Program-made: the position numbers and the translations under genes | Notes under the pieces: model-generated | Databases searched by the model: none | What the model was told of the DNA's origin: nothing | Seen by the model: only the letters and a program-made list of their open reading frames with translations | Source: Muribaculaceae bacterium | GTDB lineage: Bacteria; Bacteroidota; Bacteroidia; Bacteroidales; Muribaculaceae | Reading direction: 5' to 3' | DNA: 64,000 bases | Assembly: GCA_022509145.1 (NCBI GenBank) | Contig: JAFLTX010000002.1 | Coordinates: 15,398-79,397 of the forward strand | Shown: positions 39,330-64,000 of the stretch, in pieces | Layout of the letters: every line of letters begins with the position of its first letter | How positions within the stretch are numbered: the first letter of the stretch is position 1

Positions 39330-39409
39330 CCCTGCGGGTAAACCCGGAATTTTATAGGAAGGAGCTGAGATAGAGTCAATTCTCGGGTTTGAAATGAGAA
39401 AGAATGATT

Positions 39410-39509
39410 TGTAAAGCGGCTTTACATATTTTGTCAACGTGTAAAGAAAACGGGCATTTCTTTACACGTTTTAATAATCTGTAAAAAATCGCCGATTCTT
39501 TACAGATTG
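39410..39509. repeat. Three consecutive TGTAAA...TTTACA inverted repeats
   Basis: TGTAAAGC-G-GCTTTACA; AACGTGTAAAGAAA..TTTCTTTACACGTT; AATCTGTAAAAAATCG..CGATTCTTTACAGATT. Confidence 0.8.
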
Positions 39510-39534
39510 GGATATGGGGGAGGAGGTGGTGAAG

Positions 39535-39860
39535 AGCAACGTGTTATGCGGAACTCAAGTTTTCTGCCCCTTCCATAGGTGGAACCGGGACGATAGCCAT
39601 TGCCCTTATTGCCGGGATTTTCACTTAGGAACTCACCCCTTTCAGCTACCAGCATGATTTCAAGAAGGTCTTGAAGACCATTCCCTTCCCTTTCTGTGCA
39701 TGCTTGCACATCAATTCGGAAAGTTGTAATTTTGTCAAATCCATAAGTTGTAATTTTTAGTGTTTAGTCGCCTTAAAATTACAAACTTGTTCGGACCGGT
39801 CAAAATTTGGCCGGTCCTTTTTCATCCTATCTTGACAGACACACTTTTTGAAACAGTCTC
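39535..39860 (-). pseudogene. IS256-family remnant: left end plus a frameshifted, truncated transposase N-terminus
   Basis: End GAGACTGTTTCAAAAAGTGTGT at 39860. ATG at 39744 gives MDLTKLQLSELMCKH, then after a frameshift GNGLQDLLEIML..ER.EFL..NKGNGYRP..YG.GRKLEFRI, which then breaks off. Confidence 0.85.
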
Positions 39861-40187
39861 GGTTTCTCACATGAGGATAAAGATTATATCAGGTATATTC
39901 CCGAACCTGTTTTAAGTTTCTTTGAAGATGAATTCAACGAAAAAGAAATGATTAATTGGGTGGAGCTTTTAGAGGAATCCCTGTTCAATTTCTCAGTATG
40001 GAAGGGCATATTTGCAATATTGAATACCCCCTTTTATACTCCATCCGGAGGTGGCGTTGGAAGTTCTGACAATGATCTTCCGAAAAGAAAAGACGAGTTG
40101 GAAGAGGAAATGAAATTTGCGATGAGGTTTGCACAGGCAGCAAAATCAAAGGTCGGAATCGTGAAATCTAAAGGAAGAAGGATGTGA
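39861..40187 (+). pseudogene. C-terminal remnant of a Bacteroidales mobilisation (relaxase) protein, truncated by IS256
   Basis: Frame is open from the IS end (GFSHEDKDYIRYIPE...); tail SGGGVGSSDNDLP..KDE...KGRRM resembles Mob protein C-termini. Confidence 0.55.
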
Positions 40188-40191
40188 TATC

Positions 40192-40683
40192 ATGGCAATG
40201 AAACAATTCAACGCTGAAGAAATGAGGAAGAAAATTCAGGAGATAAAGACAGAGGAAGGTAATCACCAAAATCTTGACAAGGCTTCTGAAATCAATGACA
40301 CAATCCAGTTATTTATTGAAAAAATGCCGGAATTTGTTGAGGAAATTAACAAGCCAATGTCTGATGAATCCTTCAAAACCTATGCCGGTGTCATCGGTTT
40401 TATAATGAGAAAAGGAGCGGATGTAGCAGCTGATAGATTTGAAAAAAGGTTGACGGAGTTATTGAAAAAGGCAAATCGGAATGATAAAATCACTCTTCCG
40501 ACCATAGCCTTTTATATCCTGATGATAGTCCTGATATATCTCCTTTTATTCTTCGGAGGGGTTGTCTTTGGCAATTTCAAGGCTATTCATTCCGATGAAT
40601 TATCAGAATGGATCTTTTGGATTTACTTCTTTTTATCTGTTTCAATAGGGATTTTCTTGTGGCTAAAGAGATACTTCAAATGA
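40192..40683 (+). CDS. Hypothetical membrane protein (two C-terminal TM helices) of mobilisation modules
   Basis: Coiled N-terminus, two hydrophobic segments, directly after the Mob tail. Confidence 0.7.
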   Translation: MAMKQFNAEEMRKKIQEIKTEEGNHQNLDKASEINDTIQLFIEKMPEFVEEINKPMSDESFKTYAGVIGFIMRKGADVAADRFEKRLTELLKKANRNDKITLPTIAFYILMIVLIYLLLFFGGVVFGNFKAIHSDELSEWIFWIYFFLSVSIGIFLWLKRYFK

Positions 40684-40766
40684 ATTATTTGATACAATTT
40701 ATCTGTTATTTCATACAATAAAAACAGAATAAGAACTTTAAGTCTTACGTTATTATTAAAAATTAT

Positions 40767-41091
40767 TAACTTTGCAACGCATACCGACTTTTGGAGCCTC
40801 CGGTATGGGCGCAACGAGGGCGGCTGCAAAACATATTGACAAAAAGCGTTTATCGCGCTAATTCTTGACTTACAGAAATCTGGCAGTTTCTATTGGAGTT
40901 CAAGAATGAAGCACCGGTATGCGCCTTTCGAGGTATGATTATTCTCAATGTAGAGAACAATCGTGATGATTGTTTATTCATTAGTATTTTCATATCAGCG
41001 TGAGGCTCCGGTTGCTCGTTCTAACTCCAAGGGTAAGCCAGAGCCTCTGTAAGCGGGACGAGCAACGATGATTGGCTCTCACGCTTTTTTT
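40767..41091 (+). promoter_or_regulatory. Promoter (TAACTTTG) plus ~310-nt structured leader RNA ending in a terminator-like stem (putative attenuator)
   Basis: Many 6-9 bp complementary segments, several mutually exclusive; AGCGTGAG/CTCACGCT stem followed by T7. Confidence 0.7.
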
Positions 41092-41137
41092 ATTAACTAA
41101 TCGCCAATGAAGTGAGCCCAGAGGCATAAAGAACTTT

Positions 41138-41458
41138 ATGATTATTAATCTTAATGATGATGATTTTCGTGGTTTCTTGCAAGAGATAATAGAAAATCAA
41201 GCCCTTAACACCATCTTTTCCAACAGCCCATATTGGGGAAAAGGAGAACAAGCAATTCAATTGATCTGCAATTCACAATTTAAATCCTATCCACAAGATT
41301 TGATTCAAATTATCCAACACTTAATAGATGATGTTTGTCCGGAGCAATGTGAAGGTGGTTGTAACATTGGATGGAATCAAATGTCTACAACATTAATTAA
41401 TGGAGATAGTTTATGTGACTATCATCATAATTTAAAAGAAAAACTTGATAAAGAATAA
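41138..41458 (+). CDS. Hypothetical protein with a Cys/His cluster (possible Zn binding)
   Basis: CPEQCEGGC...W...LCDYHH; first gene after the leader. Confidence 0.65.
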   Translation: MIINLNDDDFRGFLQEIIENQALNTIFSNSPYWGKGEQAIQLICNSQFKSYPQDLIQIIQHLIDDVCPEQCEGGCNIGWNQMSTTLINGDSLCDYHHNLKEKLDKE

Positions 41459-41463
41459 TAGAA

Positions 41464-43863
41464 ATGAAACCTCAACAATTTAAATTGATCAGCATAGTTA
41501 TACTGCTTCTTTCATTTCCTAAAATTTCAGCTTATGATTTTGAGGTTGATGGAAATCTATTCTTTGAAATTATATCTCCATCTGAGCTTACATGTAAGCT
41601 TGAAAGTGTGAATAGGAACTATGAAGGTGTGCTAACAATTCCTGAAAGTGTGGATTACAAAGGAAATAAGTTGGCTGTCACTGTTATAGGTACAAATTGC
41701 ATACGATTCTGTGATAAACTAACTGATATAATTGTTCCTGCAAGTATCAAGAGCATGGAAGAAGAATGTTTTGCGAATTGCATTTCAATACAAAGTGCTA
41801 ATCTAGAGCAAATAGAGGCATCCATATTACCTCAAGGATGTTTTAAAAATTCATCAATACAGAATATTATATTACCTACACATGTTATAGAACTTCCTAA
41901 TGAGTTTTTTTATGGATGTCGAAACTTGAGTAATTTTACCATACCAGAAGGAGTGGTCAAGATTGGAGATAGTTGTTTTGCTTCAACAAAACTAGAATCT
42001 ATTTGTATTCCTGAATCATTGTTAACGCTCGGTAAAGGTTCATTTTCAGATGCCACCATCGCTTCTACTATTAATCTCCCAGAAGGTCTTTTGGAAATAG
42101 GAGATTATACTTTTAGAAACGCTTCCCTCCCTTATCTTTATATACCTTCCAAAGTTTCGCAGGTAGGAATTGGTATTTTTCAGAATTGTCAAATTCGGAA
42201 AGTTGAATTTTCTTCAGCATCAACAATTCAAACTTTACCAGAAAAAATGTTTTACCAAAGTTCCCTTGAAAACATTATATTCCCTCCTAATCTTATTAAT
42301 ATAGGAGATGGATGTTTTACAAATTGTAAAAATCTATCTCAACTTGATTTTCCTAATACAATTGAAAGTTTGGGATATCAAAGTTTAGCTGGTCTTAATC
42401 TTGATTTCTTCTGTCTTACAGAAAATTTGAAGTACGTAAATTACAAATGTTTTAACGATAGAAATTCTTCCTGGATTGATAATACAACAATTAAGAAACT
42501 AGTTTGGACAACTCCTAATCTAAATGAAAATTATTTTGATGCAGCTTTAAACAGTGAAAAATACTATGAATTAGATGATCTAGAGGATGCATCATTTGAT
42601 TTTGGTTCAGTTATTGAATGTGAGATAAGTGATAATTGTGATTTCCTTTACTTGGGATGGGTTCAAGGATATCTATTATATAGTGACCATGGTTGGAGAC
42701 ACTACAGGTATTTTGTATTTGAAAACAGTTCTTTGCAAAAATTAGTTTTGAAGGATAGTCCTAAAACTTTACAATTGGCTACTGTATATCATTTTAGTGG
42801 AAATTATTTTGGTAAAAATTACGTCCGCATGTATAAAGGATATTTTCCGTATAAAGAAAATGAGGAGGTATATGATTATTTTTTATCAACTTGGATGGAA
42901 AGTCTAAAAGAATTATATCTTGGTCGGGAAATTGAAGGAAATCCACTTTATGTACCTAATCTTGAACGATTAATTATTGGACAAGTACAAAAAGTAGATA
43001 TTGAAAATACTCCATTGCCTAACCTTAAATCAATAGAATGTGTGTCGGACATACCTCCTATAATTTCAGAAGATCACTTTACTATAGCACAATATGTAGA
43101 CCTACCTGTTGTGGTTCCAGATAATGCCATTGAAAATTATCGTAAGGCAGAAGTTTGGAAAAATTTTTGGAATATTATGACCAAAACTGATTATGAAGCT
43201 TCAATACCTAAAGATATTTCATTGAATTATTCTGACCTAACTTTAAATATTGGAGAAAATTTACAATTAACTGCTTCTTTATACCCAGAAACTGCCTCTG
43301 GAAATATAATTTTTGTCAGCTCAAACGAAGAAGTTGCATCTGTTTCTGAAGAGGGTCTTATTACTGCAAATTCAGTTGGAGAAACTATAATAACTGCTTC
43401 TTGTGGTGGAATTTCGACAACATGCACAATTTGTGTTGTTAATCCGATTAATAAAGCGGAACAGATTGTATTGAATCTTGAATTGGCTGAATTAAATATC
43501 GGAGAAACACTACAAATTGAAGCGACTGTCATTCCTGAAGATACTACAGATAAGACCTTATCATGGAATTCATCTGATCCAAATGTCGCTACTGTTTCTG
43601 ATAATGGTCTTGTAACAGCCGTATCGGCAGGATCAGTAATTATTACAGCAATTTGTGGAGAAGTATCAGCAGAATGTCAGATTACTGTTCTTGATGATGC
43701 CGGTGTTGAAAGCCTTCTTGCTAATCCGGATACAAGCATTTCAGTTTATTCCATGGATGGTAACTTGATAAGAAAGGATTGTAAAGTCGAAGACTTAAAA
43801 ACTCTAAATAAAGGAACATATATAATAGTTTCCGGTAAAGAACAATATAAAATTTCAATTTAA
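41464..43863 (+). CDS. BspA-type leucine-rich repeat (LRR_5) surface protein with two Big_2 domains and a C-terminal secretion-like tail
   Basis: Signal ..AYDFEVDG; repeats IPEGVVKIGDSCF; YRKAEVWKNF; WNSSDPNVATVSDNG; VYSMDG...LNKGTYII. Confidence 0.9.
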   Translation: MKPQQFKLISIVILLLSFPKISAYDFEVDGNLFFEIISPSELTCKLESVNRNYEGVLTIPESVDYKGNKLAVTVIGTNCIRFCDKLTDIIVPASIKSMEEECFANCISIQSANLEQIEASILPQGCFKNSSIQNIILPTHVIELPNEFFYGCRNLSNFTIPEGVVKIGDSCFASTKLESICIPESLLTLGKGSFSDATIASTINLPEGLLEIGDYTFRNASLPYLYIPSKVSQVGIGIFQNCQIRKVEFSSASTIQTLPEKMFYQSSLENIIFPPNLINIGDGCFTNCKNLSQLDFPNTIESLGYQSLAGLNLDFFCLTENLKYVNYKCFNDRNSSWIDNTTIKKLVWTTPNLNENYFDAALNSEKYYELDDLEDASFDFGSVIECEISDNCDFLYLGWVQGYLLYSDHGWRHYRYFVFENSSLQKLVLKDSPKTLQLATVYHFSGNYFGKNYVRMYKGYFPYKENEEVYDYFLSTWMESLKELYLGREIEGNPLYVPNLERLIIGQVQKVDIENTPLPNLKSIECVSDIPPIISEDHFTIAQYVDLPVVVPDNAIENYRKAEVWKNFWNIMTKTDYEASIPKDISLNYSDLTLNIGENLQLTASLYPETASGNIIFVSSNEEVASVSEEGLITANSVGETIITASCGGISTTCTICVVNPINKAEQIVLNLELAELNIGETLQIEATVIPEDTTDKTLSWNSSDPNVATVSDNGLVTAVSAGSVIITAICGEVSAECQITVLDDAGVESLLANPDTSISVYSMDGNLIRKDCKVEDLKTLNKGTYIIVSGKEQYKISI

Positions 43864-43870
43864 AAATCAA

Positions 43871-43901
43871 GTTGAGAGCCTGATCAATGAATGGTCAGGC
43901 T
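43871..43901 (+). terminator. Stem-loop between the LRR and HEPN-like genes
   Basis: GAGAGCCTGA-N11-TCAGGCTCTC. Confidence 0.55.
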
Positions 43902-43922
43902 CTCTTACAAATTATAAATAGT

Positions 43923-44390
43923 ATGGCAATAAAAGGACTTTCCAAAGAAGAGGATATACCGCAATTGTTTGATTATCTTATGATATATCCAGATGAAATT
44001 GAAAAATATAAAGGCTGGTTCAATATTAAAGATAATGTAGTTGATAAATTTTTAAATCATAATGATATTTTCTACGGATCATATAAAAAAGATAATATAT
44101 TGAAAGCTAAAAAACATCAATGGTATTTGTTATTTGAACAAAATAAAAATTCTAAAAAATCAGGATCAGATGTGGCACATCATCTTCTTCGTCATATTAG
44201 AAATGCTATAGCACATGCTAACATTGAAAAGATTATAAAGAAAGAAAAGAAAGTAAATCATCAAATCTTGTCACTTAAGGATTACAGTATTAATGGAAAT
44301 TCTCAGACAATGGATGGGAGAATTGAAAGCAAGTTATTTTATCAACTCATAGACTTAATATTGCAAACTAAAAAGGACCCCAATGGATAG
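43923..44390 (+). CDS. HEPN-like protein (putative RNase)
   Basis: LLRHIRNAIAHANI contains the R-N-x3-H HEPN motif. Start set at MAIKG, after the hairpin. Confidence 0.6.
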   Translation: MAIKGLSKEEDIPQLFDYLMIYPDEIEKYKGWFNIKDNVVDKFLNHNDIFYGSYKKDNILKAKKHQWYLLFEQNKNSKKSGSDVAHHLLRHIRNAIAHANIEKIIKKEKKVNHQILSLKDYSINGNSQTMDGRIESKLFYQLIDLILQTKKDPNG

Positions 44391-44509
44391 ATTTATAAGT
44401 TTCCTAATAATCCTAATTTTTTAAATAGAAATTATTTAGGAACTATTTGGGAACAAAATTGAATTTGGGAAAGCAGTTGATATTGGAAATCAGAGAGATA
44501 TATTTAAGC

Positions 44510-44957
44510 TTGCAGTTCAAGCGTAGGAGTCTGTACCTTTTGGTGCTCATCCTACGTTCTGAGGCCCTGGTAATTGCCCGGTATTGTCGAATGAGCAACC
44601 AGCAGAAGCCTTCTACGCCGTTTATACGATTATATATGCAACGATCACATCACATAATGATGTCCAATACGTCGGGATACAATCATATCCGCAAGGCATC
44701 TACCGTTGCCGCACTCTTGACAATACCAATGAATTTACCAGATTCCAGAACGTCAAGATTTGCGTCTTGGGTAAACGCGTTTCTTATGTTGACGAGAGCC
44801 TCTGCTCTCGCGGGATTTACCTCCTGCAAACTCCGCATTTAAGCGGCATAAACCGGGGCTCTATCCCTACAATCCCTCCCACAAGGTCAATTCCCAATAC
44901 ATATTTCATAATTGGTTGACTCACCCCTTCGACCGGGCTTCTGCGGGCGGTTTGCAA
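44510..44957 (-). ncRNA. Large structured ncRNA candidate (~445 nt), possibly the Bacteroidales-2 RNA
   Basis: TAATTTTG promoter at 44961-44968 (minus); terminal TTGCA/TGCAA pairing; long-range GCAGAAGCC/GGCTTCTGC; hairpins CGTAGGA/TCCTACG, CTTGAC/GTCAAG, CGAGAGC/GCTCTCG, GGATA/TATCC; no credible CDS. Family name is recalled, not searched. Confidence 0.6.
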
Positions 44958-45145
44958 TCACAAAATTAATGATTTTATTTAAGTATCGCAAGTTCAATAA
45001 GTAAATTTTAAGTTATATAAATTGGTTCGGCATTTTGATATCCGAAAGTATTTAAAAAAATTTGCAATGCTTGGGGAGGGTCAGTCGGTTTGCGGACCGA
45101 CCACGGGCGGGGACAACGTGGGCGCTTGGGCCAACGGAAATGTGA

Positions 45146-62876: not shown

Positions 62877-63038
62877 TAACTTTGCAATGAAAAGCGTTTG
62901 ACGTTGACAAAGACCGATTCACTCAAACAAAATAAATTAACAAATAACGAAACATCCGTATAGCCACGCAAGGTTTTGGTCGCCCGTCAACCCTACACGG
63001 AAGTTCCTGTTTCTTGAAAGTACCATGTAATTGTGGCT
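62877..63038 (+). promoter_or_regulatory. Promoter (TAACTTTG) and structured leader of the methyltransferase
   Basis: TAnnTTTG box; complementary segments including AGCCAC pairing with the GTG start region. Confidence 0.5.
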
Positions 63039-64000
63039 CAACCAAAAAAAATTAAAGTATTTGAAGGGTTCGCTGGTTACGGCGGAGCATCATTTGGATT
63101 GAAACGTTCCGGCTTAAACTATGAGGTAATAGGCATGTCGGAGTTTGATAAATTTGCAAGCGATTTATTAGCTCAAAATTTTCCTGACATTCATAACTGG
63201 GGGGATATTACAACATTGGATCCAACCGAACTTCCTGACTTTGATTTGTTTACAGGCGGTTTCCCGTGCCAGCCATTTTCTTCAGCTGGATTACAACTCG
63301 GTTTTGACGACAAATATGGGAGAGGCACATTATTTCATCATATCATTAGAATTTGTAAAGTCAAGAAACCAAGATATCTTTTGCTTGAGAATGTAAAAGG
63401 ATTAACTCAAAAAAAATTCACTTCTACCTTTGACACCATGAAGCAAATGCTTCGAGATTTAGGATACGGGGAGATTGCATATGGAATTCTAAATTCTAAA
63501 GATTATGGAATACCACAGAATCGAGAAAGATTGTGGATTTTTGCTCAATTAGGTGGACTGCCGAAAAATTTTGAAATCACGCCTCCAAAAGTTGAACTTA
63601 AATTTCGTTTTGGAGATTTTCTCGATGCCAATCCTCCGGAATACTTATATTTATCAGACGCTCAAATTGCCCATCTAAAAGTTAAACATAGAATTGATTC
63701 ATTTCTAGTAGATGAACCTCTGTGCTTTGACGTCTATAACAAAAAAATAAAAAAAGATGCTTTGTGTATCACAATAACCCAACCAGAACATAATAGTCTC
63801 CGAGTCATTGAAAAACCTAAAAACGGGAAAGAAATAGTCCGGAAAATGTCTGTTGATGAACAATTCCGTTTTATGGGTTTTGAAGACGGAGAACTTAAAT
63901 ATGAGGGCCATTCTTATTCTCAAATGTCTAAAAGAGCCGGTAACGGCTGGGACGTAAACTTAGTCGGAATCTTACTTAAACATATATTTTCTCAACTATG
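63033..64000 (+). CDS. dcm: DNA (cytosine-5)-methyltransferase, AT-rich, running to the window edge
   Basis: Manual translation from GTG: VFEGFAGYGG (motif I), GGFPCQPFS (IV), LLENVKG (VI), PQNRERLW (VIII), AGNGW (X). Ends ..SQL-TG at the edge, probably a TGA stop. Confidence 0.93.
   Translation, partial: MAQPKKIKVFEGFAGYGGASFGLKRSGLNYEVIGMSEFDKFASDLLAQNFPDIHNWGDITTLDPTELPDFDLFTGGFPCQPFSSAGLQLGFDDKYGRGTLFHHIIRICKVKKPRYLLLENVKGLTQKKFTSTFDTMKQMLRDLGYGEIAYGILNSKDYGIPQNRERLWIFAQLGGLPKNFEITPPKVELKFRFGDFLDANPPEYLYLSDAQIAHLKVKHRIDSFLVDEPLCFDVYNKKIKKDALCITITQPEHNSLRVIEKPKNGKEIVRKMSVDEQFRFMGFEDGELKYEGHSYSQMSKRAGNGWDVNLVGILLKHIFSQL

Follow-up and report, generated by a model that had tools for sequence, protein, structure and literature searches.

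The window analysed here is a stretch of 64,000 nt from a Muribaculaceae bacterium (GCA_022509145.1, contig JAFLTX010000002.1, positions 15,398-79,397 of the forward strand). A low-GC block at about 39330-45000 (5.7 kb, 27-42% GC, in a genome of about 55-60% GC) contains a promoter box, a long structured leader and a co-directional operon, in which a short ORF is followed by genes for a BspA-type surface protein and a weakly HEPN-like protein (Table 1). No TAnnTTTG box lies in the 46-nt spacer between the structured element and the first start codon at 41138. The initial annotation had proposed a multi-state leader RNA, unlike any riboswitch recognised there, ahead of an operon, and when the window sequence was read all the motifs and pairings that it named were present at their positions, with the operon downstream in the same direction.

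Table 1. Features of the leader, its operon and the second copy (window coordinates)
Feature	Position	Strand	Remark
TAACTTTG	40767-74	+	Bacteroidota-type -7 promoter box; putative transcription start near 40779-40781
P1	40780..40807	+	5'-terminal hairpin, stem 40780-86 / 40801-07
CATACCG / CGGTATG	40780-86 / 40801-07	+	arms of 5' hairpin P1
GGAGCCTC	40793-800	+	loop of hairpin 1 (P1)
PK1: P1 loop GGAGCCUC x GAGGCUCC	40793-800 x 41002-09	+	covariation, duplex energy
Fold R	40841..41089	+	5' half paired with 3' half in about 10 helices; R1 match, covariation
Rod closing helix: AAAAAGCGU / ACGCUUUUU		+	closes Fold R
Rod helices (examples)	40869-75/41047-53, 40879-84/41037-42, 40893-900/41023-30	+	best-covarying of the family
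La: AUUCUUGA / UCAAGAAU	40861-68 / 40900-07 (hairpin 40861..40907)	+	excludes rod helices 2, 6, 7
CGGTATGCG	40915-23	+	motif position confirmed
Apical hairpin	40940..40989	+	sequence and length variable; missing from the ~175-nt short forms (alignments A2, A5)
AGCGTGAG	40997-41004	+	left arm of terminator-like stem
Lb: AGCGUGAG / CUCACGCU	40997-41004 / 41078-85	+	terminator-like, directly before the U-run
GAGGCTCC	41002-09	+	partner of hairpin-1 loop
GTTGCTCGT	41011-19	+	left arm, pairs with ACGAGCAAC
Lc: GUUGCUCGU / ACGAGCAAC	41011-19 / 41058-66	+	within the 3'-domain hairpin 40997..41085
AACTCCAA	41023-30	+	long-range partner of TTGGAGTT
GCCAGA	41037-42	+	long-range partner of TCTGGC
GAGCCTC	41041-47	+	motif position confirmed
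ACGAGCAAC	41058-66	+	right arm of stem with GTTGCTCGT
CTCACGCT	41078-85	+	right arm of terminator-like stem
T7 (U-run)	41085-91	+	U-rich tail in 86/91 copies
Post-U-run hairpin	41100..41127	+	loop GUGAGCC 41112-18
PK2	41112-18 x GGCUCUC 41074-80 (rod 3' strand)	+	overlaps the 3' strand of Lb
106-aa ORF	41138-41458	+	no Pfam match; first cargo gene
799-aa BspA-type LRR / Big_2 surface protein	41464-43863	+	cargo operon
167-aa weakly HEPN-like protein	43887-44390	+	23.6 bits, below the Pfam cut-off of 26.6
Second copy, decayed, inverted	44518..44795	-	138-bit model match, pairwise alignment; tail-to-tail with the operon

Folding of 40775-41095 (321 nt) gave -115.1 kcal/mol (z = -5.2), and none of 100 dinucleotide shuffles was as good. 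The opposite strand reached an equally good folding energy, hence single-sequence folding could not decide the strand. That the listed pairings exceed chance follows from their being kept, with covariation, in homologues. Moreover, the T-run is not the end of the element: a further hairpin, located at 41100-41127 and absent from the initial annotation, pairs with 41074-41080 upstream. The functional unit is thus longer than the limits given there and reaches the start codon at 41138.

A DNA search of the genus detected related sequence in 32 of 36 species, with several stretches in each genome. In an alignment of twenty-one full copies, a TAnnTTTG box keeps a constant upstream distance (305-317 nt before the 3' anchor), and the copies close with a T-run. 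We then used a covariance model, R1, that represents the rod described below over 260 positions, excludes P1 and gives rough E-values. R1 matches the window at 40825-41087 with 207 bits and finds 9 copies in the source genome (2.06 Mb). Copies occur in 141 of 151 sampled Muribaculaceae genomes and in 33 of 35 genera, Sangeribacter, Muribaculum, Duncaniella, Paramuribaculum and Amulumruptor among the taxa sampled, with at least about 745 matches; these genomes are samples and at most 13 copies were counted in each, so totals are lower bounds. Matches were found in 29 of about 148 families in the rest of Bacteroidales, many of them short forms of about 175 nt. In 78 of 90 copies the promoter box is found within the 130 nt that precede the model start, the commonest distance being 50-59 nt.

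Among about 145 genomes outside Bacteroidales, one carries a copy, with all hallmarks present. This complete short form (locus L222, 1500-1750, genome G359, from another order of Bacteroidia) has its own covarying PK2 (loop AGGCUCG / CGAGCCU) and precedes a gene for a protein with a signal-peptide-like N-terminus, which suggests that the element has spread sporadically beyond the order. BLAST against phage and plasmid collections gave no match to the element. The link to an island with mobile cargo, made in the initial annotation, has to be corrected: the element is not peculiar to this island or to mobile DNA, but is a chromosomal, family-wide and multi-copy leader (9 copies here, 93% of Muribaculaceae genomes sampled).

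A search of the whole window with the 4227 models of Rfam 15 at gathering thresholds returned no match. Permissive thresholds on 40500-41400 gave chance-level snoRNA-type matches only, all with E of at least 1.4, and Rfam searches of 15 homologous loci gave nothing on the element. A scan of the window for tRNA and tmRNA was negative, and our literature searches met no described Bacteroidales or Muribaculaceae leader RNA that matches. The element is apparently an abundant and undescribed structured RNA of about 300 nt in gut Bacteroidales. Of the follow-up work that the initial annotation had proposed, the Rfam search stayed empty, the collection of homologues with a covariance model disclosed a large covarying family, and the tabulation of downstream genes listed 44 Pfam families among 83 first genes. 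At one locus in another Bacteroidales family (L078), a DUF805b RNA motif (RF02914, 39.4 bits, 2533-2567) lies about 800 nt downstream of a leader copy; this motif is unrelated to the leader element.

RNAalifold on the copies produced one long rod, Fold R, with compensatory changes in 28 of 59 pairs. Over 92 distinct copies, 97.8% of cells are paired and 45 of the 59 pairs have changed on both sides; none of 500 shuffles equalled this covariation, and slid controls were 34-46% paired. Copies are related to each other, and the shuffle counts thus overstate independence and should not be read as probabilities. The R1-based alignment was fitted to the rod and hence favours it; MAFFT alignments agree. 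Several rod helices show four or five pair types, and the best-covarying of the family are the long-range pairings TCTGGC/GCCAGA, TTGGAGTT/AACTCCAA and CTTACAG/CTGTAAG, the first two already listed in the initial annotation. Wobble cells of the rod comprise 673 G.U against 36 A.C, and this excess indicates that selection acts on the structure as RNA transcribed from the promoter strand, rather than as DNA or on the opposite strand. Sequence conservation is also seen in several internal loops. As to the variable apical hairpin, its use as a guide for the start-codon region of its own copy was rejected, for pairing energies were -15.5 kcal/mol with the own region and -15.7 kcal/mol with others, and 1269 of 2000 permutations were as good.

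A second set of helices, Fold L, is conserved together with the rod. In La, 90.6% of cells are paired and 7 of 9 pairs show changes on both sides; in Lb 95.5% are paired, one pair being AU in 81 and GC in 8 copies; in Lc 97.6% are paired, with 5 pairs changed on both sides. Taken together, the three helices are 94.5% paired, with both-side changes in 14 of 26 pairs against 7.7 +/- 1.6 in shuffles (0/500), and slid controls for them were 33-50% paired. They were scored on the rod-fitted alignment, which gives them no advantage. The local stems proposed in the initial annotation (ATTCTTGA/TCAAGAAT, GTTGCTCGT/ACGAGCAAC and AGCGTGAG/CTCACGCT) are accordingly conserved in 90-98% of cells and carry compensatory changes.

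The two folds compete for the same bases, Lb sharing them with rod helices 1, 8 and 9, and La and Lc with helices 2, 6 and 7. Where column 281 has changed from A to G, U-to-C changes are seen both at its rod partner, column 123, and at its Lb partner, column 388; columns 304-308 likewise covary with both alternative partners. Read by eye, short forms have an apical hairpin GCUCACG...CGUGGGC that competes with CGUGGG x CCCACG before the U-run, and in the short form at L215 compensatory changes occur in all three strands. The mutually exclusive pairings around the T-run-adjacent stem that the initial annotation envisaged are thus several in number and conserved. Enforcing Fold L in the window gave -100.6 kcal/mol (PK1 not counted) against -115.1 kcal/mol for the rod, the minimum-energy structure. 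The two folds would be roughly level only if PK1 adds about 12-15 kcal/mol to Fold L; this is our own estimate, and the energy of PK1 was not calculated. Equilibrium folding of a growing transcript kept La until about 41022 and then gave the rod.

Two pseudoknots complete the structure. The loop of P1 pairs with a strand of the 3' half (PK1), a contact noted from the window alone in the initial annotation and now seen to covary among homologues, in variants such as GGAGYC with GGCUCC, AGAAGCC with GGCUUCU and CGAAGYC with GGCUUCG. Its duplex energy is -13.7 with the own partner and -11.0 with swapped ones, and none of 2000 permutations was as good. The PK1 receptor is the 3' strand of rod helices 8-9; PK1 therefore competes with the rod. 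At 15-45 nt past the U-run, most copies have a second hairpin whose stem varies and whose loop reads G(G/U)GAG(U/C)C; this loop pairs with the rod 3' strand just before and overlapping CUCAC (PK2). At least seven variants covary, including GACUCUC/GAGAGUC, GGCUCUC/GAGAGCC, GAUCCUC/GGUGGAUC, GACCCUC/GGUGGGUC, GGCACUC/GUGUGCC, GGCUUUC/GGUAAGCC and GGUUCUC/GGGAACC. Own partners reach -10.7 kcal/mol against -8.7 kcal/mol for swapped ones, again with none of 2000 permutations as good, and PK2 is retained in short forms and in the copy outside the order. Crossed partners used as negative controls (P1 region x 3' strand; downstream spacer x GGCUCC) gave no signal.

A co-directional ORF of at least 60 aa starts within 300 nt in 80 of 81 distinct copies with enough downstream sequence, with its start 50-74 nt past the model end in 55 copies, and in none of the 81 copies is there a longer convergent ORF downstream; ORFs were called mechanically. 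TAnnTTTG boxes occur in 3 of 80 spacers, which is about chance, against 78 of 90 upstream of the RNA. The leader therefore stands between a promoter and a promoterless co-directional gene, as in an attenuator. Downstream DNA is usually low in GC. The 44 Pfam families were found among 83 first proteins, most of which have no Pfam match; BspA-type LRR proteins are the commonest type (9 proteins), then MACPF, SNF2/ResIII, DNA methylase and others. Cargo at other loci includes GIY-YIG, caspase-WG, KAP NTPase with GmrSD, BACON/DUF4595 and dockerin proteins, and that in the source genome an EcoRI-type methylase and large secreted proteins. According to a crude heuristic, secretion is likely for 52 of the 83 first proteins. 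No conserved neighbouring protein was found; downstream genes cluster weakly, and upstream genes are mutually unrelated (AAA-ATPase_like/PDDEXK_9, AAA_14/DUF4143, DUF3800, Fic, NYN, AraC). The phrase 'portable expression platform' in the initial annotation fits these data, in which the same element heads very different cargo elsewhere. A copy in a relative (L030) had been considered as the same leader at the same chromosomal position with different cargo; this was rejected, the shared gene block being inverted relative to the RNA.

The second copy in the window lies at the right-hand margin of the low-GC block; GGAGTTTG stands where its promoter box would be, and it has neither a U-run nor a gene downstream in its own direction. 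Two ORFs called across it (44447-44842 and 44584-44919) are probably spurious. Inverted copies on either side of the cargo may be left over from a cassette replacement or an inversion.

Two exclusive folds, with Lb stacked on Lc directly before a conserved U-run, fit a terminator/antiterminator leader as judged from sequence. The GC-rich stem directly before a U-run that is expected of an attenuator is present in Lb with its U-rich tail; a generic terminator scan did not list Lb, whose enclosed loop is far longer than 8 nt. The conserved alternative pairing that would sequester the terminator strand is present as well, and both sets covary, also in short forms. We therefore propose, with moderate confidence, that 40767-41137 is the promoter and the complete 5' leader of the 41138-44390 operon and acts in cis by terminator/antiterminator refolding.

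According to this model, transcription would start a few bases past TAACTTTG. In Fold R the 5' half would pair with the 3' half in a rod of about 250 nt; in Fold L each half would fold on itself, with La in the 5' half and Lc and Lb in the 3' half, Lb lying against the U-run like an intrinsic terminator. Fold L is predicted to terminate at about 41090 and release an RNA of about 310 nt, and Fold R to sequester both terminator strands so that polymerase enters the cargo genes. We infer which fold is on and which is off only from stem strength and geometry. La would form first; the rod would result if the emerging 3' strand then displaces La, and the terminator if that strand folds locally, hence the choice would be kinetic. 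The P1 loop may compete with the rod for GGCUCC through PK1 and favour Fold L. After read-through, PK2 would occupy the strand of Lb, and the message would then be fixed as the rod at a site about 20 nt 5' of the AUG. Candidate triggers are proteins, other RNAs, the speed of polymerase and signals of infection.

We identified neither a ligand pocket nor a leader peptide or partner protein. With regard to leader peptides, ATG 40804 of the window opens an 18-codon frame, most copies stop at once (ATGGGGTGA), and none is conserved. In addition, PK2 forms after the U-run has been transcribed and cannot influence that termination event, which points to a post-transcriptional role in translation or stability that the attenuator model does not require. 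Termination could also be constitutive, for both folds put a helix before the U-run (rod helix 1 or Lb).

A constitutive leader without switching is, in our view, possible though somewhat unlikely. The rod and two pseudoknots would then be a fixed 5'-UTR module that protects or boosts AT-rich accessory operons, and the local helices folding intermediates only; such a module could be a put- or EAR-like processive antiterminator, could prevent Rho from loading, could cap the 5' end against RNases, or could insulate translation by holding the surroundings of the AUG open. It would account for a docking of the PK2 hairpin on the rod about 20 nt before the AUG, possible solely in read-through RNA, and for P1 at the extreme 5' end, where a stabilising hairpin would be. 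The rod as equilibrium fold at full length, the sequence-conserved internal loops and the occurrence of the element before long low-GC operons of any function are in line with it too. However, mere intermediates have no need of the compensatory changes in La, Lb and Lc and of three-way covariation, and a conserved U-run after a conserved GC-rich stem in 86 of 91 copies is unexplained without termination. Moreover, Rfam detects no similarity to put or EAR.

Alternatively, the terminated rod of about 310 nt could be the product of a stand-alone gene for a trans-acting sRNA (a regulator, a sponge or a multi-copy particle), its place before cargo being due to co-inheritance or leaky read-through. 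A co-directional start codon at a fixed distance in 80 of 81 copies, the promoterless spacers and the covarying pairing of the rod with a downstream hairpin across the U-run make this unlikely in our judgement, even though the RNA has its own promoter and a terminator-like end, is very stable and multi-copy and exposes complementary loop and receptor motifs that could pair between copies, and even though a released sRNA was also allowed for by the initial annotation. Fixed position before promoterless genes and covariation across the U-run instead tie the RNA to the message in cis. Both readings could hold if the terminated product also acts in trans. A DNA-level element (a recombination site, an integron attC-like hairpin, a transposon end or an integration target) is highly improbable. 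In its favour, copies are frequently found at contig ends and where low-GC DNA begins or ends, the two strands of the window copy are equal in folding energy, the cargo has an inverted second copy at its flank and dyad repeats lie at the left edge of the island. Against it, wobble is strand-specific (673 G.U against 36 A.C), the promoter box keeps a constant distance and does so on a single strand, neither integrases nor transposases recur beside copies, and phages and plasmids give no matches.

A wider scheme can also be considered, which we think rather unlikely at present. In each genome, a single type of kinetic whole-molecule switch would govern 5 to more than 13 unrelated operons with surface, defence and restriction functions; it would be nucleated by an internal kissing contact CUGGCA/UGCCAG, tuned by the two pseudoknots and set by one common signal. 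Such a signal could be a dedicated protein, a change in how polymerase behaves under phage attack, or trans pairing of GGAGYC loops with the GRCUCY receptors of terminated copies.

Our element resembles attenuation leaders and riboswitch expression platforms in being promoter-proximal and followed by a co-directional gene, with a GC-rich stem, a U-run and exclusive partners for the terminator strands. Unlike them, it has no recognisable aptamer, ligand theme or leader peptide, refolds nearly the whole 250-300 nt as a four-strand exchange with two loop-receptor pseudoknots, and serves dozens of unrelated genes in one genome. The 44 Pfam families have no metabolic theme and the conserved internal loops match no known aptamer, which speaks against a riboswitch; a global signal molecule is a possible ligand. 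T-box leaders are likewise multi-copy and 200-300 nt in length, possess a long stem and tertiary contacts made by loops, and choose between terminator and antiterminator. However, T-box sequence and specifier logic are absent from our element, which the Rfam T-box model fails to match; its cargo has no link to amino acids, and its hosts are Bacteroidales. With put of phage HK022 and EAR of Bacillus it shares the form of a pseudoknotted, cis-acting structured RNA heading accessory operons, but it is much larger and has its own U-run, two conserved alternative folds and no Rfam match.

In Bacteroides, the NusG-like UpxY antiterminators act on 5' UTRs of capsule loci. This is the same order, with leader-dependent read-through into accessory surface-structure operons, a read-through that we predict for our leader. 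No upxY-type first gene occurs among the cargo, however, and we know of no conserved RNA structure in UpxY-target 5' UTRs. The rod shape and the length of a few hundred nucleotides recall 6S RNA, which is a single-copy, trans-acting mimic of the open promoter, whereas our element has many copies, each before a gene, and is not matched by the Rfam 6S models. FopS and GibS of Bacteroides are multicopy sRNAs with canonical promoters, and FopS has a single-stranded 5' seed and a terminator hairpin, acts in trans on susC mRNAs and, as its authors state, has been deposited in Rfam (PMC11697453). Our element is also a multi-copy non-coding RNA family of Bacteroidales with canonical promoters; identity with FopS or GibS was rejected, as the element matches no Rfam family and these are different molecules.

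Muribaculaceae and related Bacteroidales are dominant gut bacteria in which RNA-based regulation is almost unexplored. The element heads many variable genes, including those for BspA-type adhesins, MACPF proteins, lipoproteins, restriction-modification and other anti-phage functions, and understanding it could explain how surface and defence repertoires are switched. Evolutionary support for two complete alternative folds and two pseudoknots is rare in a natural RNA and offers a model for kinetic RNA switching. With the alignments and the covariance model, the regulon becomes directly predictable in any genome, and the element could supply a compact, portable expression-control cassette for engineering Bacteroidales. 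A genome-wide switch under a common signal, if true, would reveal a new principle by which a major group of gut bacteria regulates genes acquired horizontally.

Some further features of the window were observed. At the left edge of the low-GC block, just past the NAD kinase gene, there are three inverted repeats with TGTAAAG/CTTTACA dyads (39407-39509), and two GTTGTAATTTT direct repeats with an inverted partner follow at 39711-39784. These repeats resemble binding sites for a protein or attachment sites; the low-GC block showed no integrase gene. A strong terminator-like hairpin, GGACCGGTCAAA/TTTGGCCGGTCC, with T-rich sequence after it, lies at 39793-39817, and two small ORFs without Pfam match (39948-40187 and 40192-40683) are located between it and the leader. 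Near the other end of the window, in 63001-64000, where the covariance model finds no leader copy, GC falls to 0.36, which suggests that another low-GC insert begins near 62900.
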